Shown here: positions 13,634-57,226 of the stretch, piece by piece
Layout of the letters: every line of letters starts with the position of its first letter
How positions within the stretch are numbered: position 1 is the first letter of the stretch
Assembly: GCF_030384885.1 (NCBI RefSeq)
Contig: NZ_CP128613.1
DNA from: Escherichia coli
GTDB lineage: Bacteria; Pseudomonadota; Gammaproteobacteria; Enterobacterales; Enterobacteriaceae
DNA: 64,000 nt
Strand: one strand, 5' to 3'
Notes under the pieces: generated by a model
Told to the model about the DNA's origin: nothing
Databases searched by the model: none
What the model saw: only the letters and a program-made list of their open reading frames with translations
Position numbers and translations under genes: made by a program

Positions 13634-14335
<702 letters not shown>

Positions 14336-24856: not shown

Positions 24857-26140
24857 ATGCAACTTACCAACGAAGAACAAGTACAGATTGCTCGTATAAA
24901 AGAAAAAATCCCACGCATTGCCGCACTGGATCCTGAATGTAAGTTATTCGGTTCTGAAGGTTGGAAATATCAATGGCCGAAGCCTGCCAGCGAGGCGGAA
25001 ATAGCTTCCTGGGAGAAAAAACATAGCGTCACTTTGCCACGGGAATATCGAATTTTTCTTCGCTATATCGCTAATGGCGGTCCGGCACATGCCTACGGTC
25101 TTGAATCTTTAGGCGGTACAGATATTTATGGCGATATAACAAAAGAAAGCCCTGTACCGCTTTATATGACGCAGCAGGATGTTGATGTGTTGAATGCTGG
25201 CCGTACAGAAGATGATGAAGAATATAGTTTTTTTGACGGCGCATTGACCATTCTCACCCTGGGATGTACTTATGATATTTGCCTGGTGGTGACGGGGCAG
25301 TATCGCGGAAGGTTAATGCTGACTGATGGTGATGAAGATTATCCGTTTGATTTTATATATGATAAAAATTTCCTCAACTGGTATGAACGCTGGCTGGACG
25401 ATTTTATTGCTGGCATGAGTATGAAGGGTTTCGATAGAAGTTTGCCAGGAACGCAAATTCAACTGCGTGAGTGGTTTTTAACTGAGAAAATCCCGGATTT
25501 ACGTAGATCCATTTTATTCTCGCTATGCCGTTTTCCACAGATAGAACCCGAAACTTTTGCCCTTTGGGAACATGTTTGCCGTACAGAGAATGATAAAGAA
25601 TTGTGTGAAGAGGCATTCATAAGATTACGCCAAAAAAAAGTTTCTTGTGCTGCAGATATTTTTCGACTCTATTTTGCAATGTCAGATGAATTACGTGATA
25701 TTGCTATTAAAGATCTCCGTTTTGCCTGTAGAGATAGTGTGGTGAATATTGAGGATTATATTCATTCACTGTTAATAATAATGCCTGAACTTGACGATGA
25801 CACTCTATCCTCAGCTGTCTTTGCTATACGAGAAACAGAGTATAATAAATATGATACTTTTCTGCCGCTTCTCGAACGTATCACTGATGACCGTCAGCAA
25901 ACATTATTGTGGGCGATGAGTAAGGCGCCTGATTTCAATGAAAGCCGAGGATTCGTTGAGTTGGTATTACCGCTTTTTGCATCATCAAAGATGGAGAATG
26001 TAAGGAAGGCTATTTTGTTGCTCATTGAAGTTAAAGATAATCGTATTCCACCATTGGTTGATGAAGCTGCAACTCGTTTCCCTGAACTGACCATTTTACG
26101 AGAAAACTACTATCTCAGGACGTGGGGACATAAGCCATAA
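24857..26140 (+). CDS. Accessory protein: SMI1/KNR4 (SUKH-1)-like N-terminal domain plus about 230 aa helical C-terminal extension
   Basis: N-terminus carries the SMI1/KNR4 signature (EAEIASWEKKHSVTLPREYRIFLRYIANGG ... DYPFDFIYDKNFLNWYERWLDDF). ATG at 24857 has RBS AAGGA 9 bp upstream; the track used TTG at 24854. AT-richer than flanks by eye; no K-12 counterpart remembered at this locus. Confidence 0.7.
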   Translation: MQLTNEEQVQIARIKEKIPRIAALDPECKLFGSEGWKYQWPKPASEAEIASWEKKHSVTLPREYRIFLRYIANGGPAHAYGLESLGGTDIYGDITKESPVPLYMTQQDVDVLNAGRTEDDEEYSFFDGALTILTLGCTYDICLVVTGQYRGRLMLTDGDEDYPFDFIYDKNFLNWYERWLDDFIAGMSMKGFDRSLPGTQIQLREWFLTEKIPDLRRSILFSLCRFPQIEPETFALWEHVCRTENDKELCEEAFIRLRQKKVSCAADIFRLYFAMSDELRDIAIKDLRFACRDSVVNIEDYIHSLLIIMPELDDDTLSSAVFAIRETEYNKYDTFLPLLERITDDRQQTLLWAMSKAPDFNESRGFVELVLPLFASSKMENVRKAILLLIEVKDNRIPPLVDEAATRFPELTILRENYYLRTWGHKP

Positions 26141-26177
26141 ATTAATGGTTCAGAAATGATCTAACGCGGAGAAAAAT

Positions 26178-26708
26178 ATGATCAGGGAACATATTCAGCA
26201 AGCGATAAATAATAGGTTAGCATTTGATGGCCCATTCAATGTTGTTCCTGAACCTGCAAGCACTGCGTTTGATAGCCGGATCCCGACATTGAAAAACGGT
26301 GTCTGGCAGAAGGCCAGCCCTATGTTGCAGGCGCGTTTTGCACATTGTGGACGTTGGTTAAGCGCTACACATGGAAGCTGGCTAAGTATAAGTGACATGG
26401 AAACGCTTTGGCAGGAACACATAGAAGATACGTTTCTTGATGAAATCAAAATGAATGCTGTAGCTTCAAGTGATAATTGGGATAACCATGCCTTGGGACT
26501 ATTTCGTTCTCATCGCCTGTCACTTTTTGCCGGTAGTGATTACAGTTATGAAATGGTTTTTCTCCTTTGGCTAGATAGTACCGTTGAGCCAGAGGTCTGG
26601 GTTTATGACTGCAATGGGGAATCACGTTATAAAGATCTTAATGATTACCTGAATGCATATATTAATGATGACGTAAGCGCCTGTGAGCGCTCTTGGCGAG
26701 TAGAATGA
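26178..26708 (+). CDS. Accessory small protein (176 aa), uncharacterised, possibly SUKH/immunity-like
   Basis: C-terminal segment EPEVWVYDCNGESRYKDLNDYLNAYIND resembles the C-terminal block of SUKH-type proteins; RBS GGAG 7 bp upstream; same strand as and 37 bp after the preceding ORF. Confidence 0.55.
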   Translation: MIREHIQQAINNRLAFDGPFNVVPEPASTAFDSRIPTLKNGVWQKASPMLQARFAHCGRWLSATHGSWLSISDMETLWQEHIEDTFLDEIKMNAVASSDNWDNHALGLFRSHRLSLFAGSDYSYEMVFLLWLDSTVEPEVWVYDCNGESRYKDLNDYLNAYINDDVSACERSWRVE

Positions 26709-27331
26709 ATAGCCCCCCTTGCCCCTTTGATCCACAAACCGCACATTACCTCGGCACAGTGCAAATCCACTACACCTCAACCACCTTCAACGCTGCCGTT
26801 AAGCATTATACCTATCACATTAAAAAGCGTTTTAAAGGGGTTAAATGGGGAATTGGTACCGCTGGCTTATTGGCTATATTGCCCATGATCCCACAATGGT
26901 TGAAACCTTCTCATGACTTTAAACTCAACGCAATCAGTACGTTAATTCTTCTATTAATGTTGCCACTCCTCTTATCAATGTTCCTGTTAATCAGCAGAAG
27001 AATTAACGATTTTAAGTCAAAAACAAAGCAAGTTACTTTTACGAAACCCGTGCGTTATGCGTTTTATTTCGAGGGGATTGTTTTTTATGAATCTCATCAG
27101 CAGGGCATACTTCGCTGGGAAGATTTTTATGGCATTGAGTATGAAGAAGATTATTTGTGGCTTTTTCTGCATTTACCGAAGAGTTTTCCCAGAGAAGCGA
27201 CGAAAGCGTTTTGCGATATTTTCATTCCCACCAGTGCGATAAAAGCGCAGCCTGAACTGGATACGTTTTTTCGTGAAACACGCCACTCGCTGGATTATCT
27301 GTTTGTCCCGTTTAATTCTGACAGAAAATAA
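26705..27331 (+). CDS. Accessory membrane protein, YcxB-like (two TM helices plus C-terminal bPH-like domain)
   Basis: ATG at 26705 overlaps the upstream TGA stop (ATGA); the track used TTG at 26693. Two hydrophobic helices (WGIGTAGLLAILPMIPQWL; ISTLILLLMLPLLLSMFLLI) then ...ILRWEDFYGIEYEEDYLWLFLHLPKSF..., typical of YcxB-like proteins. Confidence 0.6.
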   Translation: MNSPPCPFDPQTAHYLGTVQIHYTSTTFNAAVKHYTYHIKKRFKGVKWGIGTAGLLAILPMIPQWLKPSHDFKLNAISTLILLLMLPLLLSMFLLISRRINDFKSKTKQVTFTKPVRYAFYFEGIVFYESHQQGILRWEDFYGIEYEEDYLWLFLHLPKSFPREATKAFCDIFIPTSAIKAQPELDTFFRETRHSLDYLFVPFNSDRK

Positions 27332-36485: not shown

Positions 36486-39038
36486 TCAGAACAATTCCTG
36501 TGCCTCGCCATTATCGATAATGGTCGTTCCCACCTCGTGCACCGCCTGTTGTGTCGGCTGTGTACCTTCGATGAAATACTCTTCGCGGCTGTTGCCACCA
36601 TTAGCTAACTGCCCGGTGCTGCGATCGATATTCACCGTCACAATACCCGGCGGCGGCGTCAGCGGCTGTTCCGGCACGCCTTCAAGAACGGCTTTCATAT
36701 AAGCGTCCCATGCAGGCTGGGCACTCTTGGCACCGCCTTCGTAACCTGAGATCTGATCTTTAATCGCTCCGGAAGCCGTTGTATGACCGAGATTACGGCG
36801 GTGATCATCAAAGCCAATCCAAACCGAGGTCACAACGCCCGGACCGTAACCCGAGAACCACGCATCTTTCGAACTGTTAGTGGTACCCGTTTTTCCGCCG
36901 ATATCATGCCGTTGTAAATCACGACCTGCTCGCCAGCCGGTACCCTGCCAGCCTGGCTCACCAAAAATATTGGTGTTCAGGGCGCTCTTAATCAGGAATG
37001 CCAGCGGAGTGTTGATGACGTGCGGTGCGTACTCCTGCGCGCCAGTCTTCGCGACTAACGCCTGATTCGCCTGCTCCAGCTGCGGCATTGGTACAGAAAC
37101 ATTCTGCTGCTCGCGGGAGATAGCGACATCTTCAACATCGTTATTTTCCAGCACGTTCGATTTCTGCGTATCACCGTAAATCACCGGAATATCGCATTCC
37201 GGGCAGGCTACTTTCGGTTTCGCTTCGAAAATCACGCCGCCCTGATCGTTTTCAATTTTGCTGATAAACCACGGGTCCACCAGGAAGCCGCCGTTCGCCA
37301 TTACCGCGTAGCCGCGCGCCACCTGCATTGGGGTGAAGGACGCTGAACCCAGCGCCAGCGATTCGGTGTGGACAATGTTTTGCGCCGGGAAGCCGAAGCG
37401 TTGCAGATATTCTGCAGCGTAGTCGACGCCCATCGCCCGCATTGCGCGTACCATCACCACGTTTTTCGACTGGCCCAGTCCCTGACGTAAGCGAATTGGA
37501 CCGGCATACTGTGGTGGTGAGTTCTTCGGCTGCCAGTCAGAACCGGCACCTGCATCCCAGCGGGAAATTGGCACATCGTTCAACATACTTGCCAGCGTCA
37601 GACCTTTATCCATCGCCGCGGTGTAGAGGAACGGTTTGATGTTGGAACCTACCTGACGCAGTGCCTGGGTGGCGCGGTTAAACTTGCTCTGATTGAAATC
37701 AAAGCCACCGACCAGCGCCATAACGGCACCGTTTTGCGGATTGATCGACACCAGCGCCGAGTTCACTTCCGGCACTTGTGCAAGCCACCATGCATCGCCA
37801 ACCTGACGAACCCAGATTTGCTGACCCGTTTGCAGAACATCGGTCACTTTACGCGGCGTCGGTCCCTGCTGAGTATCCGAACGGTAAGGACGCGCCCAGC
37901 GAACGCCTTCCATACTCAATGCGACGGTCGACCCGTCCGCCAGCATCGCCGTCGCTTCCTGAGGATTGGCGCTGGTGACTGCGGCAGGCAGCAGCGGACC
38001 ATAGGTCGGCAGCGCCTTCAGCGTATCGGTAATCTTGTTGTTATCCCACGCCGATTCGCCCACTTTCCACAGCACATTTGCCGGGCCGCGATAGCCGTGG
38101 CGCATGTCGTAGTCCAGCACGTTATTACGTACTGCCTGCTGTGCGGCCTGCTGTACTTTGCGGGTGATGGTGGTGTAAATGCGATAACCGTCTTCATAGG
38201 CACTTTCGCCATAACGGTTATACATCTCCTGGCGCACCATTTCGCTCAGGTACGGCGCAGAGAAAGCAATCTCCGGCGCGTGATAGTTAGCGTTAATCGC
38301 CTCAGTGCGTGTCTGATCGAACTGTTGTTGGGTGATATACCCTTCATCCAGCATCCGCGACAGTACGACGTTACGCCGCGCGACGGCACGATCCATTGAG
38401 TAGAGCGGATTAAAGGTGGAAGGCGCTTTCGGCAGCCCGGCTATCACCGCCATTTCGTTCAGCGTCAGTTGGTCGACCGTTTTACCGAAATAGACTTGTG
38501 CCGCAGCACCGACACCATAGGCGCGGTAACCGAGGTAAATCTTGTTCAGATAAAGCTCGAGGATCTCGTCTTTCGTCAGCAACTGTTCAATGCGAATCGC
38601 GAGGAAGACTTCCTTAATCTTACGCATCAGCGTGCGTTCTGGACTGAGGAAGAAGTTTCTCGCCAGCTGCTGGGTAATGGTACTCGCCCCTTGTGACGCG
38701 TGGCCGGAGAACAGCGCCACACTTGCCGCACGGAAGATCCCCACCGGGTCAACGCCGTGATGCTCGTAGAAGCGGCTGTCTTCCGTCGCGATAAAGGCTT
38801 TCACCATCTCCGGCGGGATTTGATCCAACGTAACCGGAATACGACGTTTCTCACCGTATTGAGCAATCAGCTCGCCATCGGCGCTGTAAATCTGCATCGG
38901 AATTTGCAGGCGAACATCTTTTAATGTCGCCACATCCGGCAGTTGTGGCTCGATGTAGCGGTATAGGCCATAAATCGAGCCTGCTCCCAGCAGAATGCAA
39001 CAGACTGCAAGGATCAAAAAATACTTTACGAACTTCAC
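36486..39038 (-). CDS. mrcA: Penicillin-binding protein 1A (bifunctional transglycosylase/transpeptidase)
   Basis: Recognised protein begins MKFVKYFLILAVCCILLGAGSIYG... (850 aa); the track ORF starts 8 codons upstream. Confidence 0.95.
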   Translation of the reverse strand: MKFVKYFLILAVCCILLGAGSIYGLYRYIEPQLPDVATLKDVRLQIPMQIYSADGELIAQYGEKRRIPVTLDQIPPEMVKAFIATEDSRFYEHHGVDPVGIFRAASVALFSGHASQGASTITQQLARNFFLSPERTLMRKIKEVFLAIRIEQLLTKDEILELYLNKIYLGYRAYGVGAAAQVYFGKTVDQLTLNEMAVIAGLPKAPSTFNPLYSMDRAVARRNVVLSRMLDEGYITQQQFDQTRTEAINANYHAPEIAFSAPYLSEMVRQEMYNRYGESAYEDGYRIYTTITRKVQQAAQQAVRNNVLDYDMRHGYRGPANVLWKVGESAWDNNKITDTLKALPTYGPLLPAAVTSANPQEATAMLADGSTVALSMEGVRWARPYRSDTQQGPTPRKVTDVLQTGQQIWVRQVGDAWWLAQVPEVNSALVSINPQNGAVMALVGGFDFNQSKFNRATQALRQVGSNIKPFLYTAAMDKGLTLASMLNDVPISRWDAGAGSDWQPKNSPPQYAGPIRLRQGLGQSKNVVMVRAMRAMGVDYAAEYLQRFGFPAQNIVHTESLALGSASFTPMQVARGYAVMANGGFLVDPWFISKIENDQGGVIFEAKPKVACPECDIPVIYGDTQKSNVLENNDVEDVAISREQQNVSVPMPQLEQANQALVAKTGAQEYAPHVINTPLAFLIKSALNTNIFGEPGWQGTGWRAGRDLQRHDIGGKTGTTNSSKDAWFSGYGPGVVTSVWIGFDDHRRNLGHTTASGAIKDQISGYEGGAKSAQPAWDAYMKAVLEGVPEQPLTPPPGIVTVNIDRSTGQLANGGNSREEYFIEGTQPTQQAVHEVGTTIIDNGEAQELF

Positions 39039-39157
39039 TGGAAATTTCCCATTTAGTTTCATTTGGGCAGTTTATAAACAAACGCGCGGTAGTATAAAGG
39101 CAAGCCAGACGCATTGATATACCCGTCAGAGTGACGGGTGATAAGGAGATCATCACA

Positions 39158-39937
39158 ATGGCATTTAAGATCTGGCAAATTGGTTTGCATTTACAACAGC
39201 AAGAAGCGGTAGCGGTTGCGATCGTGCGGGGCGCAAAAGAATGCTTTTTGCAACGCTGGTGGCGGTTGCCGCTGGAGAACGACATAATCAAAGATGGGCG
39301 GATTGTCGATGCACAGCGGCTGGCTAAAACGTTGTTACCGTGGAGTCGCGAACTGCCGCAGCGTCATCACATTATGTTGGCGTTTCCCGCCAGTCGCACA
39401 TTACAGCGGTCATTTCCGCGCCCGTCGATGTCCCTTGGTGAGCGGGAGCAAACGGCCTGGCTGTCCGGGACGATGGCCCGCGAGCTGGATATGGATCCGG
39501 ACTCCCTGCGCTTCGATTACAGCGAAGACTCACTCAGTCCCGCCTATAACGTGACTGCCGCGCAAAGCAAAGAGCTGGCAACGCTGCTTACTTTGGCAGA
39601 AAGGTTGCGTGTTCATGTTAGTGCGATCACCCCGGATGCCAGTGCATTACAGCGATTCCTGCCTTTTTTACCTTCTCATCAGCAATGTCTGGCCTGGCGT
39701 GATAACGAACAGTGGCTGTGGGCGACGCGCTATAGCTGGGGGCGCAAACTGGCGGTGGGGATGACTAGCGCGAAGGAGCTGGCGGCAGCGTTATCCGTTG
39801 ATCCCGAAAGCGTCGCGCTATGTGGCGAAGGCGGATTTGACCCGTGGGAGGCGGTTTCTGTTCGTCAGCCGCCGCTACCGCCGCCAGGTGGAGACTTTGC
39901 CATCGCGCTGGGGCTGGCGCTAGGGAAGGCGTACTGA
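39158..39937 (+). CDS. hofM: Type IV pilus/DNA-utilisation assembly protein HofM (PilM-like)
   Basis: Recognised protein begins MAFKIWQIGLHLQQQEAVAVAIVRG... (259 aa). Confidence 0.9.
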   Translation: MAFKIWQIGLHLQQQEAVAVAIVRGAKECFLQRWWRLPLENDIIKDGRIVDAQRLAKTLLPWSRELPQRHHIMLAFPASRTLQRSFPRPSMSLGEREQTAWLSGTMARELDMDPDSLRFDYSEDSLSPAYNVTAAQSKELATLLTLAERLRVHVSAITPDASALQRFLPFLPSHQQCLAWRDNEQWLWATRYSWGRKLAVGMTSAKELAAALSVDPESVALCGEGGFDPWEAVSVRQPPLPPPGGDFAIALGLALGKAY

Positions 39938-40476
39938 TGAACCCGCCAATTAATTTTTTGCCCTGGCGACAGCAACGCCGGACCGCTTTTCTTCGTTTCT
40001 GGTTGCTGATGTTCGTTGCGCCTCTGCTGCTGACCGTCGGGATAACGCTAATATTGCGTCTGACAAGCAACGCCGAAGCTCGCGTAGATGCCGTTTTGCT
40101 TCAGGCGGAACAACAACTCGCCCACAGCTTACAAATAACGAAACCACGTTTGCTGGAGCGCCAACAAATTCGTGAGCAGCGTTTGCAAAGGCAGCGCCAG
40201 CGACAATTTACCCGTGACTGGCAATCTGCGCTGGAAGCACTGGCGGCGCTTTTACCCGAGCACGCCTGGCTGACAACGATAAGCTGGCAGCAGGGAACGC
40301 TGGAGATCAAGGGGCTAACAACAAGCATTACCGCGTTAAACGCGCTGGAAACGTCACTCCGCCAGGATGCTTCTTTTCATCTCAATCAGCGGGGGGCCAC
40401 GCAGCAGGATGCGCAGGGACGCTGGCAATTTGAGTATCTGTTAACAAGGAAGGTTAGCGATGGACATGCTCTTTGA
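39937..40476 (+). CDS. hofN: HofN (PilN-like)
   Basis: MNPPINFLPWRQQRRTAFLRFWLLMF... (179 aa); ATGA overlap with the hofM stop. Confidence 0.88.
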   Translation: MNPPINFLPWRQQRRTAFLRFWLLMFVAPLLLTVGITLILRLTSNAEARVDAVLLQAEQQLAHSLQITKPRLLERQQIREQRLQRQRQRQFTRDWQSALEALAALLPEHAWLTTISWQQGTLEIKGLTTSITALNALETSLRQDASFHLNQRGATQQDAQGRWQFEYLLTRKVSDGHAL

Positions 40477-40900
40477 CTGGTGGTTCGCCACATCACCCCG
40501 CCTCCGCCAGCTTTGCTGGGCATTCTGGTTGATGATGTTAGTTACGCTCATTTTTCTGTCATCGACACACCAGGAAGAGAGCGACGCATTAATTCGACTA
40601 CGGGCAAGTCATTACCAGCAGTGGGCCGCACTGTATCGCCTGGTAAACACCACTCCCTTCAGTGAGGAAAAAACGCAGCCCTTTTCGCCACTGGATTTTC
40701 AGTTATCCGGCGCGCAACTGGTTTACTGGCATCCATCCGCGCAGGGAGGTGAGTTGGCGTTGAAAACGCTGTGGGAAGCAGTGCCGTCGGCATTTACACG
40801 GCTGGCAGAGCGCAACGTCAGCGTGAGCCGTTTTTCGTTAAGCGTGGAAGGTGATGACCTTTTGTTCACGCTACAACTGGAGACGCCGCATGAGGGTTAA
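40460..40900 (+). CDS. hofO: HofO (PilO-like)
   Basis: 146 aa; MDMLFDWWFATSPRLRQLCWAFWLMMLV...; overlaps hofN by 17 nt. Confidence 0.85.
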   Translation: MDMLFDWWFATSPRLRQLCWAFWLMMLVTLIFLSSTHQEESDALIRLRASHYQQWAALYRLVNTTPFSEEKTQPFSPLDFQLSGAQLVYWHPSAQGGELALKTLWEAVPSAFTRLAERNVSVSRFSLSVEGDDLLFTLQLETPHEG

Positions 40901-41294
40901 ACGCTGGTTGTTAGCAGGCATTGCATTGTGCCTTTTAACCGGTATGCGTGACCCTTTTAAACCGCCGGAAGATCTATGTCGGATTAGCGAACTTAGCCAG
41001 TGGCGCTATCAGGGGATGGTAGGGCGAGGCGAGCACATCATCGGTGTAATAAAAGATGGGCAAAAAAAATGGCGACGGGTGCAGCAAAACGATGTGTTGG
41101 AAAACGGCTGGACGATCTTACAGCTAACGCCAGACGCACTAACGCTGGGAACCGGGACAAACTGCGAACCGCCACAATGGTTGTGGCAACGGCAAGGAGA
41201 TACAAATGAAGCAATGGATAGCCGCACTACTGTTGATGCTGATACCCAGCGTACAGGCGGCAAAGCCGCAAAAAGTGACGCTGATGGTGGATGA
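40890..41294 (+). CDS. hofP: HofP (PilP-like lipoprotein)
   Basis: MRVKRWLLAGIALCLLTGMRDPFKPP... (134 aa). Confidence 0.85.
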   Translation: MRVKRWLLAGIALCLLTGMRDPFKPPEDLCRISELSQWRYQGMVGRGEHIIGVIKDGQKKWRRVQQNDVLENGWTILQLTPDALTLGTGTNCEPPQWLWQRQGDTNEAMDSRTTVDADTQRTGGKAAKSDADGG

Positions 41295-42444
41295 CGTTCC
41301 GGTAGCTCAGGTGTTGCAGGCGCTGGCTGAACAGGAGAAGTTGAACCTGGTGGTGTCGCCAGACGTCAGCGGTACGGTGTCATTACATCTAACAGATGTT
41401 CCCTGGAAGCAGGCGCTACAAACTGTAGTGAAAAGCGCCGGGCTAATAACGCGTCAGGAGGGCAACATTCTCTCGGTGCATTCCGTTGCCTGGCAGAATG
41501 ACAATATCGCCCGTCAGGAGGCTGAACAGGCGCGGGTGCAGGCAAGTCTGCCGCTGGAAAATCGTAGTATAACCCTGCAATACGCCGACGCGGGAGAACT
41601 GGCGAAAGCAGGGGAGAAACTACTGAGTGCTAAAGGGAGTATGACCGTTGATAAACGTACCAATCGCCTTTTGCTGCGAGATAACAAAGCGGCGTTAAGC
41701 GCGCTTGAACAGTGGGTAGCGCAAATGGATCTGCCGGTCGGGCAGGTTGAGCTGTCGGCGCATATTGTCACCATTAATGAAAAAAGTTTGCGTGAGTTAG
41801 GCGTGAAATGGACGTTGGCTGATGCGCAACAAGCTGGTGGCGTTGGGCAAGTCACCACGCTTGGCAGCGACCTCTCCGTAGCGACGGCGACAACGCATGT
41901 CGGTTTTAACATTGGACGCATCAACGGACGTTTACTGGATCTTGAGCTTTCCGCGCTCGAACAAAAACAGCAGCTGGATATTATCGCCAGTCCGCGTCTG
42001 CTGGCCTCACATCTTCAGCCTGCCAGCATTAAACAGGGGAGCGAAATTCCATATCAGGTTTCCAGCGGGGAAAGTGGCGCGACGTCGGTGGAATTTAAAG
42101 AGGCCGTCCTGGGGATGGAAGTTACGCCCACGGTGTTACAAAAAGGTCGCATCCGGCTGAAATTACACATCAGCCAGAACGTTCCGGGGCAGGTGCTACA
42201 GCAGGCCGATGGCGAAGTGCTGGCGATTGATAAGCAGGAGATCGAAACGCAGGTCGAGGTCAAAAGCGGAGAAACGTTGGCGCTGGGTGGTATTTTTACC
42301 CGTAAAAATAAATCGGGTCAGGATAGCGTACCGTTGCTTGGTGACATTCCCTGGTTCGGGCAATTATTTCGTCATGACGGAAAAGAAGATGAACGACGCG
42401 AGTTAGTGGTGTTTATCACGCCACGACTGGTTTCCAGTGAGTAA
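41206..42444 (+). CDS. hofQ: Secretin HofQ (PilQ/ComE-like outer membrane channel)
   Basis: 412 aa; MKQWIAALLLMLIPSVQAAKPQKVTLMV... with signal peptide and C-terminal secretin region; overlaps hofP. Confidence 0.9.
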   Translation: MKQWIAALLLMLIPSVQAAKPQKVTLMVDDVPVAQVLQALAEQEKLNLVVSPDVSGTVSLHLTDVPWKQALQTVVKSAGLITRQEGNILSVHSVAWQNDNIARQEAEQARVQASLPLENRSITLQYADAGELAKAGEKLLSAKGSMTVDKRTNRLLLRDNKAALSALEQWVAQMDLPVGQVELSAHIVTINEKSLRELGVKWTLADAQQAGGVGQVTTLGSDLSVATATTHVGFNIGRINGRLLDLELSALEQKQQLDIIASPRLLASHLQPASIKQGSEIPYQVSSGESGATSVEFKEAVLGMEVTPTVLQKGRIRLKLHISQNVPGQVLQQADGEVLAIDKQEIETQVEVKSGETLALGGIFTRKNKSGQDSVPLLGDIPWFGQLFRHDGKEDERRELVVFITPRLVSSE

Positions 42445-42844
42445 ACAGCCGTAAAAGCGGTAATGTTTTTACGCTGAACGTGTTTCATCTATTTGACGCG
42501 CGCAGGTATTTAGCATACAAGGAGTACCGATTTGAGAGTTGGTGCTCTTCGCTGCCTGCGTTCCATGATGATGATTTATCATTCAGGCGGCATTTTGCTG
42601 TCTTTTTTACGCTAATCTTACCCGGTGATTTATCGCCAGAGCGGTGGTAGCAAGGCAGCGCGCTTGCAGCGACCAGATATGCAGAGGGATGGGTGATTTA
42701 TTCAGTTGCCAAACCCGCTGGAGTATTGAGATAATTTTCAGTCTGACTCTCGCAATATCTTATGAGGTTTCAGTTCATGTCCTGCGGCGCTCTCTGAGCG
42801 AAGCGGGTTTATCATTAACGAATAGTCTTAGTAGTACCGAAAAA

Positions 42845-43366
42845 ATGGCAGAGAAACGCAATATCTTTCTGGTTGGGCCTATGGGTGCCGGAAAAAGCAC
42901 TATTGGGCGCCAGTTAGCTCAACAACTCAATATGGAATTTTACGATTCCGATCAAGAGATTGAGAAACGAACCGGAGCTGATGTGGGCTGGGTTTTCGAT
43001 TTAGAAGGCGAAGAAGGCTTCCGCGATCGCGAAGAAAAGGTCATCAATGAGTTGACCGAGAAACAGGGTATTGTGCTGGCTACTGGCGGCGGCTCTGTGA
43101 AATCCCGCGAAACGCGTAACCGTCTTTCCGCACGTGGCGTTGTCGTTTATCTTGAAACGACCATCGAAAAGCAACTTGCACGCACGCAGCGTGATAAAAA
43201 ACGCCCGTTGCTGCACGTTGAAACACCGCCGCGTGAAGTTCTGGAAGCGTTGGCCAATGAACGCAATCCGCTGTATGAAGAGATTGCCGACGTGACCATT
43301 CGTACTGATGATCAAAGCGCTAAAGTGGTCGCAAACCAGATTATTCACATGCTGGAAAGCAACTAA
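42845..43366 (+). CDS. aroK: Shikimate kinase 1
   Basis: Recognised protein begins [28 protein letters not shown]... (173 aa); the track ORF starts 67 codons upstream, probably spurious leader. Confidence 0.93.
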
Positions 43367-55868: not shown

Positions 55869-56954
55869 ATGAAGACGTTTCCTTTGCAAAGCCTGACGCT
55901 TATTGAAGCGCAGCAAAAGCAGTTTGCGTTGGTGGATACGATTTGCCGCCATTTTCCCGGCGCGGAGTTTCTTACCCGCGGGGATTTAGGCTTAACGCCG
56001 GGGCTGAATCAACCGCGCATTACTCAGCGTGTGGAGCAGGTGCTGGCTGATGCGTTTCATGCGCCAGCGGCGGCGCTGGTGCAGGGCGCGGGTACTGGAG
56101 CAATTCGCGTCGGGCTGGCAGCTTTGCTCAAATCGGGGCAGCGTCTTCTGGTGCATGACGCGCCTGTTTACCCGACGACTCAGGTCATTATTGAGCAGAT
56201 GGGGCTGACGCTTATTACAGCTGATTTCAACGACCTGTCGGCGCTTAAAGAGGCCATTGAAGAGCAACAACCTGATGCCGCGCTGGTGCAGCATACGCGC
56301 CAGCAGCCGCAGGACAGCTATGTACTGGCAGATGTGCTGGCAACGCTGCGCGCAGCAGGTGTTCCAGCCTTAACCGATGACAACTATGCGGTGATGAAGG
56401 TGGCGCGCATTGGCTGTGAATGCGGCGCGAATGTTTCGACATTCTCCTGTTTCAAGCTGTTTGGACCAGAGGGTGTTGGCGCGGTGGTAGGCGATGCCGA
56501 TGTTATCAACCGTATTCGCGCTACGCTTTACTCTGGCGGCAGCCAGATTCAGGGCTCACAGGCGCTGGAAGTCTTGCGTGGTTTGGTGTTTGCGCCAGTG
56601 ATGCACGCGGTGCAGGCGGGGGTATCTGAACGGTTGCTGGCTTTACTTAACGGTGGCGCAGTGGCGGAAGTGAAAAGCGCGGTGATTGCCAATGCGCAGT
56701 CGAAGGTGTTGATTGTGGAGTTTCATCAACCGATTGCCGCCAGAGTGCTTAAAGAGGCGCAAAAGCGCGGCGCGTTGCCTTACCCGGTTGGTGCAGAGTC
56801 GAAATATGAGATCCCGCCGCTTTTTTATCGCCTTTCCGGAACGTTTCGCCAGGCGAATCCGCAATTAGAACATTGTGCGATTCGTATTAACCCGAATCGC
56901 AGCGGTGATGAGACGGTATTGCGGATTTTGCGCGAGAGTATTGCCAGCGTTTAA
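55869..56954 (+). CDS. yhfS: Putative PLP-dependent enzyme YhfS
   Basis: 361 aa; MKTFPLQSLTLIEAQQKQFALVDTICRHFPGAEFLTRGDLGLTPG... Confidence 0.8.
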   Translation: MKTFPLQSLTLIEAQQKQFALVDTICRHFPGAEFLTRGDLGLTPGLNQPRITQRVEQVLADAFHAPAAALVQGAGTGAIRVGLAALLKSGQRLLVHDAPVYPTTQVIIEQMGLTLITADFNDLSALKEAIEEQQPDAALVQHTRQQPQDSYVLADVLATLRAAGVPALTDDNYAVMKVARIGCECGANVSTFSCFKLFGPEGVGAVVGDADVINRIRATLYSGGSQIQGSQALEVLRGLVFAPVMHAVQAGVSERLLALLNGGAVAEVKSAVIANAQSKVLIVEFHQPIAARVLKEAQKRGALPYPVGAESKYEIPPLFYRLSGTFRQANPQLEHCAIRINPNRSGDETVLRILRESIASV

Positions 56955-56992
56955 TTCTGGGAACGATGTTTTCGCAGAGTATGGAGAAAAAT

Positions 56993-57018
56993 ACGCCCTC
57001 GGAAAATTCAGAGGGCGT
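56993..57018 (-). terminator. Hairpin terminator between convergent yhfS and yhfL
   Basis: ACGCCCTC-ggaaaattca-GAGGGCGT, an 8 bp stem; T-run on the minus strand downstream of the yhfL stop. Confidence 0.55.
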
Positions 57019-57058
57019 TAGCTCATTAAATCGGTGTTAGCCGATTTCTGTCAGAGAC

Positions 57059-57226
57059 TTACTGTGCAGTAGGACCGCAACCGCCAATGATTTTAGAAAT
57101 AGAAATTGCTGGGTGCAGCAGGTAGTCGTAAGAGCAGTTCTTATCACGGTTTTCAATATGACCAGTACATGCAGTTAACGTAGCCAGTACCGCACCAACC
57201 AGTGCAACTTTAATAAATTTGTTCAT
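57059..57226 (-). CDS. yhfL: Small lipoprotein YhfL (55 aa)
   Basis: Translated by hand from the reverse strand: MNKFIKVALVGAVLATLTACTGHIENRDKNCSYDYLLHPAISISKIIGGCGPTAQ, with lipobox LTAC. Absent from the ORF track because it is under 60 aa. Confidence 0.85.
   Translation of the reverse strand: MNKFIKVALVGAVLATLTACTGHIENRDKNCSYDYLLHPAISISKIIGGCGPTAQ

Follow-up and report, generated by a model that had tools for sequence, protein, structure and literature searches.

Organization of the hofMNOPQ locus

The window, i.e. the whole 64,000-nt stretch of Escherichia coli DNA analysed here, contains five consecutive overlapping genes on the + strand, each of which starts with ATG and, as judged by inspection of the open reading frames, carries no internal stop codon. 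Profile, fold and annotation matches agree in identifying them as hofMNOPQ, a locus of the type IV pilus / DNA-uptake family, as the initial annotation had proposed; the gene limits given there were exact, as was the placement of mrcA, which is oriented divergently on the - strand. Alternative names are yrfD-yrfC-yrfB-yrfA-hofQ in the older E. coli nomenclature, comABCDE in Haemophilus and pilMNOPQ in Pseudomonas. The genes of the region are as follows:

36486–39038, - strand: mrcA (PBP1a), from the annotation of the identical record NZ_CP027579.1
39158–39937, + strand: hofM, 259 aa, predicted short cytoplasmic actin-fold protein resembling PilM and the GspL cytoplasmic domain (AlphaFold2 model, Foldseek)
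39937–40476, + strand: hofN, 179 aa, PilN-family bitopic inner-membrane protein (Pfam PilN)
40460–40900, + strand: hofO, 146 aa, putative PilO/GspM-like bitopic inner-membrane protein (PF25319)
40890–41294, + strand: hofP, 134 aa, PilP-fold periplasmic protein (Pfam HofP, AlphaFold2 model, fold matches)
41206–42444, + strand: hofQ, 412 aa, outer-membrane secretin with an N-terminal signal peptide (NCBIfam, Pfam)
41206–41294, + strand: hofP/hofQ overlap, 89 nt, read in one frame as the signal peptide of HofQ and in the second as the tail of HofP (ORF coordinates)

The hofM-hofQ region is 100% identical to that of E. coli 2013C-4282 (NZ_CP027579.1), in which hofM-hofQ are annotated. The proposal that the operon is intact and without frameshifts was borne out by alignment of positions 39039–42845 with the hofMNOPQ region of K-12 MG1655 (b3395-b3391): the alignment was free of gaps, the five genes were of equal length, and neither premature stops nor frameshifts were found. 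Gene order, start codons and overlaps also match those of K-12, and so do the neighbours, with mrcA divergent upstream and aroK-aroB-damX-dam downstream (annotations of NZ_CP027579.1 and NC_000913.3). Both flanking intergenic regions are 100% identical. [quoted passage not shown] The open frame of mrcA extends to 39062, beyond the annotated start at 39038. The best overall explanation of these data is that the locus is almost certainly an intact orthologous copy of E. coli hofMNOPQ; the locus itself is already known, and this copy is an ordinary one.

Gene products and their relation to PilMNOPQ

The five-gene order is shared with the PilMNOPQ systems of Pseudomonas aeruginosa, Myxococcus and Thermus, and the individual products correspond to their components through (i) the PilM fold of HofM, (ii) the PilN domain of HofN, (iii) the PilP fold of HofP and (iv) the PilQ profile of HofQ. 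For HofM and HofP, searching the solved structures by sequence produced no meaningful match, and these two proteins were therefore compared by fold. The AlphaFold2 model of HofM (pLDDT 90.2) yielded P. aeruginosa PilM as its top Foldseek matches (5eq6/5eoy, E 8e-14; also 5eox/5eou, E about 1e-13), followed by T. thermophilus PilM:PilN (2ych, TMq 0.69) and the cytoplasmic domains of GspL/EpsL. In contrast to PilM proteins, HofM scores below the curated PilM sequence model TIGR01175 (15 bits vs a cut-off of 133) and is about 95 residues shorter (259 vs about 354 aa), a size nearer to that of the cytoplasmic domain of GspL. Its only Pfam match, T2SSL, is sub-threshold (18.3 vs 25.5 bits), and a segment scan detected no hydrophobic segment. 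By its modelled fold, HofM ranks as a short, divergent protein resembling PilM and GspL.

HofN matches Pfam PilN (PF05137; 36.9 bits vs a cut-off of 22.8) and carries a hydrophobic, membrane segment at residues 22–40. Its N-terminal motif N[FL]LPWR, retained in 67 of the 78 orthologues, presumably resembles the PilM-binding N-terminus of PilN. HofO, with a hydrophobic segment of the same kind at residues 18–36, matches the HofO EspM-like domain PF25319 (89.1 bits vs a cut-off of 27); no match to the PilO model was obtained in the Pfam search at E<=0.01.

HofP scored 261 bits against Pfam HofP. In its AlphaFold2 model the core (residues 38–101) has a pLDDT of 84–91 and the C-terminal tail (residues 106–134) a value below 50. 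Each of the best 13 fold matches was to either PilP or the HR domain of GspC, with modest E-values (1e-4 to 0.26). PilP is a lipoprotein, whereas no conserved lipobox cysteine was found among the 61 HofP orthologues: C30 and C92 are invariant, and Cys14 is present in only four of these proteins, this position being mostly occupied by Leu or Pro. This pattern of residues suggests that HofP is probably anchored or exported otherwise than by lipobox lipidation. The missing lipobox sets HofP apart from PilP, but is no ground for excluding it from the PilMNOPQ module.

HofQ was recognized by NCBIfam NF007851 (854 bits, cut-off 598) and by the PilQ model TIGR02515 (447 bits, cut-off 284), and contains the Pfam domains STN (STN/N0), Secretin_N and Secretin. 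Its N-terminus is a typical signal peptide, MKQWIAALLLMLIPSVQA/AKPQ, opened by the ATG at 41206. The best solved relative is the competence PilQ of Vibrio cholerae (6w6m, E 8e-75). Unlike PilQ proteins of 571–745 residues, HofQ (412 aa) lacks the N-terminal extension, since it aligns only to their C-terminal roughly 410 residues.

HofM is thus placed in the cytoplasm by prediction, HofN and HofO in the inner membrane, HofP in the periplasm and HofQ in the outer membrane as the secretin. By homology, the five products would form the envelope-spanning alignment complex and the pore of a PpdD pilus / DNA-uptake machine, the remaining parts of which would be encoded elsewhere in the genome (ppdD-hofBC, ppdAB-ygdB-ppdC and gspO). 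A construct in which the hofM-hofQ block was cloned as a single fragment, together with other components, assembles pili (bioRxiv 10.1101/856302).

Gene junctions and translation initiation

The ORF coordinates confirmed overlaps of 17 nt for hofN/hofO, 11 nt for hofO/hofP and 89 nt for hofP/hofQ. The hofM/hofN junction, described in the initial annotation as a 4-nt ATGA overlap, is instead of the TGATG type, with an overlap of 1 nt. Its sequence is GTAC-TGA-TGA-ACC, in which hofM ends with the first TGA (39935–39937) and the hofN ATG occupies 39937–39939; the ATGA string does occur there, but its TGA is not the stop codon of hofM. In 80 loci of Enterobacteriaceae the modal overlaps were 1 or 4 nt (M/N), 17 nt (N/O), 11 nt (O/P) and 89 nt (P/Q), although start codons in other genera were picked automatically and some loci may be wrong. 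Recurring as they do across Enterobacteriaceae, the overlaps are no mere accident of one strain.

From these overlaps it had been concluded that translation is obligately coupled at every junction, with each downstream protein synthesized exclusively by ribosomes coming straight from the upstream gene. An overlap is indeed present at each junction in an architecture conserved across Enterobacteriaceae, and the subunits of homologous systems form a stoichiometric complex. However, an overlap by itself does not demonstrate coupling, and obligate coupling is not implied here, because each of the five genes has its own Shine-Dalgarno sequence (AAGGAG for both hofM and hofQ) and because, of all initiation regions in the operon, that of hofQ is predicted to be the most open, both in the window, where it falls in the 1st percentile, and in each of 69 orthologous operons. 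The hofM initiation region of the window is also predicted to be open (dG_open 6.1 kcal/mol vs a background of 11.4), these estimates describing the thermodynamic folding of naked mRNA. Across these 69 operons, which are phylogenetically related, so that p-values overstate their independence, dG_open was 8.0 kcal/mol for hofM and 4.65 kcal/mol for hofQ, as compared with a background of 13.0, and both genes fell under the background median in 100% of the loci. The corresponding values for hofN, hofO and hofP were 14.3, 12.5 and 12.5 kcal/mol; by prediction none of these three regions is open, a point in favour of the coupled reading.

The distances between upstream stop and downstream start are similarly uneven. 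They amount to a few nucleotides at M/N (1 nt) and arguably at O/P (11 nt) and N/O (17 nt), and exceed this at P/Q, where the hofP stop lies 89 nt past the hofQ start. An overlap of 89 nt would be poorly suited to termination-reinitiation. The P/Q distance moreover varies from 4 to 140 nt between genera, a range that a conserved mechanism of termination-reinitiation at this junction could hardly accommodate. Obligate coupling at all four junctions is therefore improbable: coupling keeps its plausibility for hofN, hofO and hofP, for which the folding predictions are compatible with it, and is doubtful for hofQ.

We rather lean, with some reserve, towards an operon composed of two translation units instead of a five-gene chain. 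Ribosomes would start independently at the two conserved open sites, hofM and hofQ, and hofN, hofO and hofP would be the genes likeliest to rely on ribosomes that come from the gene before them, because their overlaps are short and their initiation regions are predicted to be no more open than coding sequence. The same reading takes the P/Q overlap to be non-adaptive and the HofP tail (residues 106–134) to be possibly dispensable.

Several observations bear on the origin of the P/Q overlap. Conservation in HofP is lowest in the tail, which some genera lack, and codon-position variation inside the overlap tracks the hofQ frame. The hofP stop codon (TGA) is embedded in the conserved Asp-Asp codons of HofQ (GAT GAC). 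When HofQ residues 1–30 were recoded synonymously, the hofP frame stayed open to the same stop in 60% of cases, so the length of the overlap needs no selection. Selection for a long overlap was accordingly considered and rejected on the strength of the recodings, the poorly conserved tail, the variation in the hofQ frame and the existence of genera with overlaps of just 4 or 38 nt. The overlap may instead be a by-product of a hofQ start that sits 5' of the first hofP-frame stop, this stop being presumably held in place by the conserved HofQ codons.

The overlap might also be an annotation error, the true hofQ start lying further downstream or hofP ending earlier, given that long bacterial overlaps often reflect mispredicted starts and that the HofP tail is both poorly conserved and modelled with low confidence. 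This is very unlikely, as (i) the hofP frame contains no stop before 41292–41294, either here or in K-12, (ii) AAGGAG lies well spaced in front of the ATG at 41206, which opens the signal peptide, (iii) the next in-frame ATG (Met11) would strip the signal peptide of its charged N-region, and (iv) roughly half of the loci, from several genera, give tblastn matches to HofQ that start with residue 1.

Regulation, conservation and significance

Three features flanking the five genes are relevant to expression of the operon:

38882–39007, no strand assigned: CRP-binding fragment of the yrfD (= hofM) promoter, inside the mrcA 5' coding region (EMSA primers of PMC1635313)
39039–39157, no strand assigned: mrcA-hofM spacer, 119 nt, carrying the hofM Shine-Dalgarno sequence AAGGAG; zero differences from K-12
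42448–42471, + strand: small terminator-like hairpin and its T-rich tail, 4 nt past the hofQ stop (consensus scan)

In K-12 the yrfD promoter fragment, in which two weak CRP-S sites were predicted, is shifted by CRP, and yrfD is induced 16-fold by Sxy in a CRP-dependent manner; without Sxy, transcription of the operon is poor or undetectable (PMC1635313). The EMSA primers used in that study map exactly to the window (38882–38901, + strand; 38986–39007, - strand), and positions 38860–39038, including the CRP-binding fragment, are identical to K-12. Because of this identity, control by Sxy and CRP is presumably the same as in K-12: expression would be low in laboratory culture and would be switched on by Sxy and cAMP-CRP through weak CRP-S sites inside mrcA. 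Between 38700 and 39200, a strict search allowing up to 1 mismatch found no CRP-S site of the form TGNGA-N6-TCNCA, and a relaxed half-site scan combined with position conservation over 73 loci gave no convincing CRP-S site in the EMSA fragment.

H. influenzae comABCDE and V. cholerae pilMNOPQ, which have been treated as orthologues of hofMNOPQ, are likewise controlled by Sxy (Sxy/TfoX) and CRP via CRP-S sites (PMC1635313). In both Haemophilus and E. coli the CRP-S site overlaps the upstream ORF; unlike the Haemophilus and Vibrio promoters, that of E. coli has two predicted weak sites, not one. The secretin is required for DNA uptake in these competence systems, and in E. coli hofQ::kan abolishes Sxy-induced DNA uptake (PMC3330819). 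Wild-type E. coli has not been shown to undergo natural transformation, no natural inducing condition is known for E. coli sxy, and chromosomal transformation was obtained only with a recombineering helper (PMC3330819). The physiological role of the operon (DNA as a nutrient, transformation or an adhesion pilus) is debated, since transformation of the wild type is undemonstrated (PMC3330819).

Downstream of hofQ, the 401-nt spacer preceding aroK contains an aroK promoter-like site (42706–42735) and two terminator-like hairpins, terminator-like sites being no more numerous in the region than expected from shuffled sequence. Scanned with Rfam at gathering thresholds, the entire window, this spacer included, revealed no RNA element.

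A full-length operon is present in 5425 of the 5426 complete E. coli genomes. The allele described here is uncommon, with 16–18 of the 5426 records at least 99% identical to it and the remainder at about 96–98%. Within Escherichia, dN/dS ranges from 0.02 to 0.25 for the five genes (about 0.10 for hofM, 0.16 for hofN, 0.2 for hofO, 0.2 for hofP and 0.03 for hofQ), and all five are under purifying selection. Relaxed selection on hofO, which its dN/dS of about 1 against K-12 might indicate, was rejected: that figure derives from only 13 substitutions (3 synonymous and 10 non-synonymous), and deeper comparisons within Escherichia give 0.16–0.25. In E. albertii NBRC 107761, in-frame stops occur within hofO and hofP.

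The term cryptic, applied to the operon in the initial annotation, is appropriate if it means silent under laboratory culture (PMC1635313), but not if it means decaying. That the operon is a decaying relic, whose open reading frames persist after loss of function, is scarcely credible and already contradicted by the selection data: the poor transcription in the laboratory, the undetected natural transformation (PMC1635313, PMC3330819), the K-12 figure for hofO and the E. albertii stops would suit such a relic, yet the full-length copy is almost universally retained, hofO too is constrained at greater divergence, and the operon is Sxy-inducible, with hofQ needed for the resulting uptake of DNA.

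With its frames intact, this strain is not functionally distinguished from K-12 at hofMNOPQ, and as a textbook-annotated core-genome operon the locus in itself matters little. Obligate coupling should no longer be deduced from the overlaps. What the two-unit reading modestly adds is a testable refinement: hofM and hofQ would start independently, hofN, hofO and hofP might be coupled, and HofP could dispense with its tail. It may help those who redesign the type IV pilus cassette of E. coli, e.g. when hofP and hofQ are to be separated or the junctions recoded.

Layout and identity of the hofMNOPQ locus

The analyzed locus comprises five genes transcribed in the same direction, surrounded by the following features:

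39158-39937 (+): hofM, ATG start, no internal stops
39937-40476 (+): hofN, ATG start, no internal stops
40460-40900 (+): hofO, ATG start, no internal stops
40890-41294 (+): hofP, ATG start, no internal stops
41206-42444 (+): hofQ, ATG start, no internal stops
annotated start 39038 (-): mrcA, divergent from hofM
downstream of hofQ: aroK, aroB, damX and dam (from the annotation)
42585-42603 (+): terminator-like hairpin with a T-run in the hofQ-aroK spacer, consensus match only
42706-42735 (+): sigma-70-like site (TTGCCA, 18 nt, TG-GATAAT; 10/12 matches) in the hofQ-aroK spacer, consensus match only, presumably the aroK promoter

The operon limits given in the initial annotation (39158-42444) coincide exactly with these ORFs, and divergence from mrcA, located on the - strand, was borne out. 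Alignment of positions 39039-42845 with E. coli K-12 MG1655 revealed zero gaps, and all five genes have the K-12 lengths and contain no stops; the operon is therefore intact, as had been claimed. [quoted passage not shown] No differences from K-12 occur in the two spacers flanking the operon (mrcA-hofM, 119 nt; hofQ-aroK, 401 nt) or in 179 nt at the 5' end of mrcA. Thus, the hof coding region differs from K-12 by approx. 3% (5.7% for hofN, with a dS of 0.16), in contrast to the adjoining intergenic DNA and mrcA 5' end (0 differences), a contrast that may stem from recombination of a segment or from unusually strong conservation of the regulatory DNA. Positions 39000-42600 have a 100% identical counterpart in the chromosome of another E. 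coli strain, 2013C-4282 (NZ_CP027579.1).

The identification of the genes as hofMNOPQ is correct. HofQ clears the secretin models for HofQ and PilQ and contains STN, Secretin_N and Secretin domains; its closest solved structure is the competence-pilus secretin of Vibrio cholerae (6w6m). HofN, with one hydrophobic segment, clears the Pfam PilN model, and its N-terminal motif N[FL]LPWR is kept in 67 of 78 orthologues despite an overall identity of 31-53%. HofO matches its own family (HofO EspM-like domain). Since sequence searches of HofM and HofP against solved structures gave no useful match, and HofM scored below the cut-off of the curated PilM model, the structures of both proteins were predicted from alignments of 61 orthologues. 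The best fold matches of the HofM model (pLDDT 90.2) are the PilM proteins of P. aeruginosa and T. thermophilus, followed by GspL (cytoplasmic domain) and FtsA. For HofP, a beta core (residues 38-101) is modelled with confidence, and each of the 13 best fold matches of the model is either PilP or the HR domain of GspC, which is homologous to it. Compared with their Pseudomonas counterparts, HofM is approx. 95 residues shorter than PilM, a conserved lipobox cysteine is missing from HofP, and the long extension at the N terminus of PilQ has no counterpart in HofQ. The N-terminal Cys14 of HofP is not conserved, so this protein is probably not a lipoprotein. Two other cysteines of HofP, Cys30 and Cys92, occur without exception in the 61 aligned orthologues, suggesting that its PilP-like domain contains a conserved disulfide. 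The locus represents an ordinary copy of an already known feature.

Gene junctions and translational coupling

According to the initial annotation, the genes overlap at each junction, which was taken to indicate obligate translational coupling. The N/O (17 nt), O/P (11 nt) and P/Q (89 nt) overlaps are as described. The hofM/hofN overlap, given as a 4-nt ATGA, is in fact a 1-nt overlap (TGATG): in the sequence TAC-TGA-TGA-ACC the first TGA is the hofM stop, whose last base opens the hofN ATG. Mapping of the five genes in 80 orthologous loci from other Enterobacteriaceae (HofQ identity 67-98%) revealed that the junction architecture is conserved across this family. The M/N overlap is 1 nt in 29 loci and 4 nt in another 29, the N/O junction is a 17-nt overlap in 48 and a 3-nt gap in 15, the O/P overlap is 11 nt in 63, and the P/Q overlap is 89 nt in 35 (range 4-140 nt).

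The long P/Q overlap is not the product of a mis-annotated hofQ start; this possibility was rejected, since hofQ opens with a good Shine-Dalgarno (SD) sequence and a typical signal peptide. Nevertheless, the length of the overlap is apparently not a device but a by-product. The HofP residues encoded within it (106-134) are less conserved than any other part of HofP and have a pLDDT of <50 in the predicted structure. Nucleotide diversity by codon position inside the overlap tracks the hofQ frame, and variation is lowest at third codon positions in the hofP frame, which is the opposite of the pattern expected from constraint on the HofP tail. The hofP stop (TGA) sits within conserved HofQ Asp-Asp codons (GAT GAC), and when HofQ residues 1-30 are recoded synonymously, the hofP frame stays open to its native stop in 60% of cases. 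The overlap is only 4 nt in Leclercia-like loci (HofP of 103-105 aa) and 38 nt in Phytobacter and Kosakonia (HofP of 117 aa).

Obligate coupling at every junction was not established. Each of the five starts in the window is preceded by its own SD sequence. We also computed the energy needed to unfold the initiation region (dG_open; -18 to +6 around each start, with 90 nt of context on either side). In the window, the starts of hofQ (4.5 kcal/mol) and hofM (6.1 kcal/mol) rank with the most open sites in the operon, and that of hofP (16.0 kcal/mol) with the most closed (background 11.4 +/- 3.1). Mean values for 69 loci, which are folding predictions on naked RNA from related sequences, were 8.0 (hofM), 14.3 (hofN), 12.5 (hofO), 12.5 (hofP) and 4.65 (hofQ), against a background of 13.0 +/- 3.9; hofM and hofQ fell below the background median in 69/69 loci. 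Such open starts fit a model in which ribosomes would initiate independently at hofM and hofQ, and coupling, if any, would be limited to hofN, hofO and hofP. On these predictions, the claim that hofQ is obligatorily coupled to upstream translation is probably wrong.

Other genes of the window

A second competence-gene homologue, gntX (13634-14317, - strand; annotated as 'DNA utilization protein GntX'), the homologue of comF, is located approx. 25 kb from hofMNOPQ. In Enterobacteriaceae, comF has its own CRP-S promoter (PMC1635313).

The RNA-splicing ligase gene rtcB (1183-2408, +) is a frameshifted pseudogene according to the annotation of the identical RefSeq record, and the flanking rtcR and rtcA are intact. 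Three annotated genes (24857-27331, +) separate envZ from pckA, an interval that presumably contains no genes in K-12:

24857-26140 (+): SMI1/KNR4-family protein
26178-26708 (+): hypothetical protein
26759-27331 (+): hypothetical protein

Since SMI1/KNR4 proteins frequently act as immunity proteins in polymorphic toxin systems, the trio may constitute a small orphan-immunity islet. In addition, yhfL directly follows yhfS (approx. 56954-57059); the fructoselysine operon frlABCDR, which separates these genes in K-12, thus seems to be missing in this strain.

Regulation, distribution and selection

Published work has already established what the locus is, how it is regulated and what role it plays. 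Two CRP-S sites were predicted in the promoter of yrfD (hofM) by Cameron and Redfield, who observed weak CRP binding to this promoter and a 16-fold, CRP-dependent induction of yrfD by Sxy; the operon had earlier been found to be poorly or undetectably transcribed (PMC1635313). The EMSA primers of that study map to positions 38882-39007, i.e. within the mrcA CDS and outside the region delimited in the initial annotation. Insertion hofQ::kan abolishes Sxy-induced DNA uptake (Sinha and Redfield; PMC3330819), and growth on DNA requires competence-gene homologues (work cited in PMC3330819). Moreover, a cassette that assembles type IV pili in E. coli contains hofM-hofQ cloned as one native piece of DNA (preprint 10.1101/856302).

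All but one of the 5426 complete E. coli genomes (5425) carry full-length hofMNOPQ. Alleles at least 99% identical to the window copy were found in only 16-18 of the 5426 records, the majority being approx. 96-98% identical. Across genera (L003-L082, orthologous loci of other Enterobacteriaceae), identity to the window proteins is 67-86% for HofQ, approx. 37-68% for HofM, 31-53% for HofN, 30-50% for HofO and 31-62% for HofP; the secretin thus evolves several-fold slower than the inner-membrane alignment proteins.

Some orthologous loci carry apparent lesions. The E. albertii type strain NBRC 107761 (L007, 3755-4586) has in-frame stops at hofO codon 70 and hofP codon 34, with intact hofM, hofN and hofQ (HofQ 97% identical to that of the window). 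The pattern resembles an inactivation of the alignment subcomplex specific to this lineage, sequencing error being the alternative. The hofM, hofN and/or hofQ genes are seemingly disrupted or fused (several tblastn pieces, a 15-aa ORF, a 439-aa fused hofM ORF) in Citrobacter koseri NCTC10786 (L038), C. amalonaticus AUH_CA_2023_1 (L014) and Phytobacter massiliensis JC163 (L028), which reflects either real pseudogenes or long-read assembly indels.

The dN/dS of hofO versus K-12 is approx. 1, a value resting on just 13 substitutions. Versus more distant Escherichia (L003-L007), dN/dS is approx. 0.10 for hofM, 0.16 for hofN, 0.2 for hofO, 0.2 for hofP and 0.03 for hofQ. The term "cryptic", used in the initial annotation, is thus appropriate in the sense of silent in the laboratory, but not in the sense of decaying, since these low ratios (0.03-0.2) point to purifying selection acting on all five hof genes.
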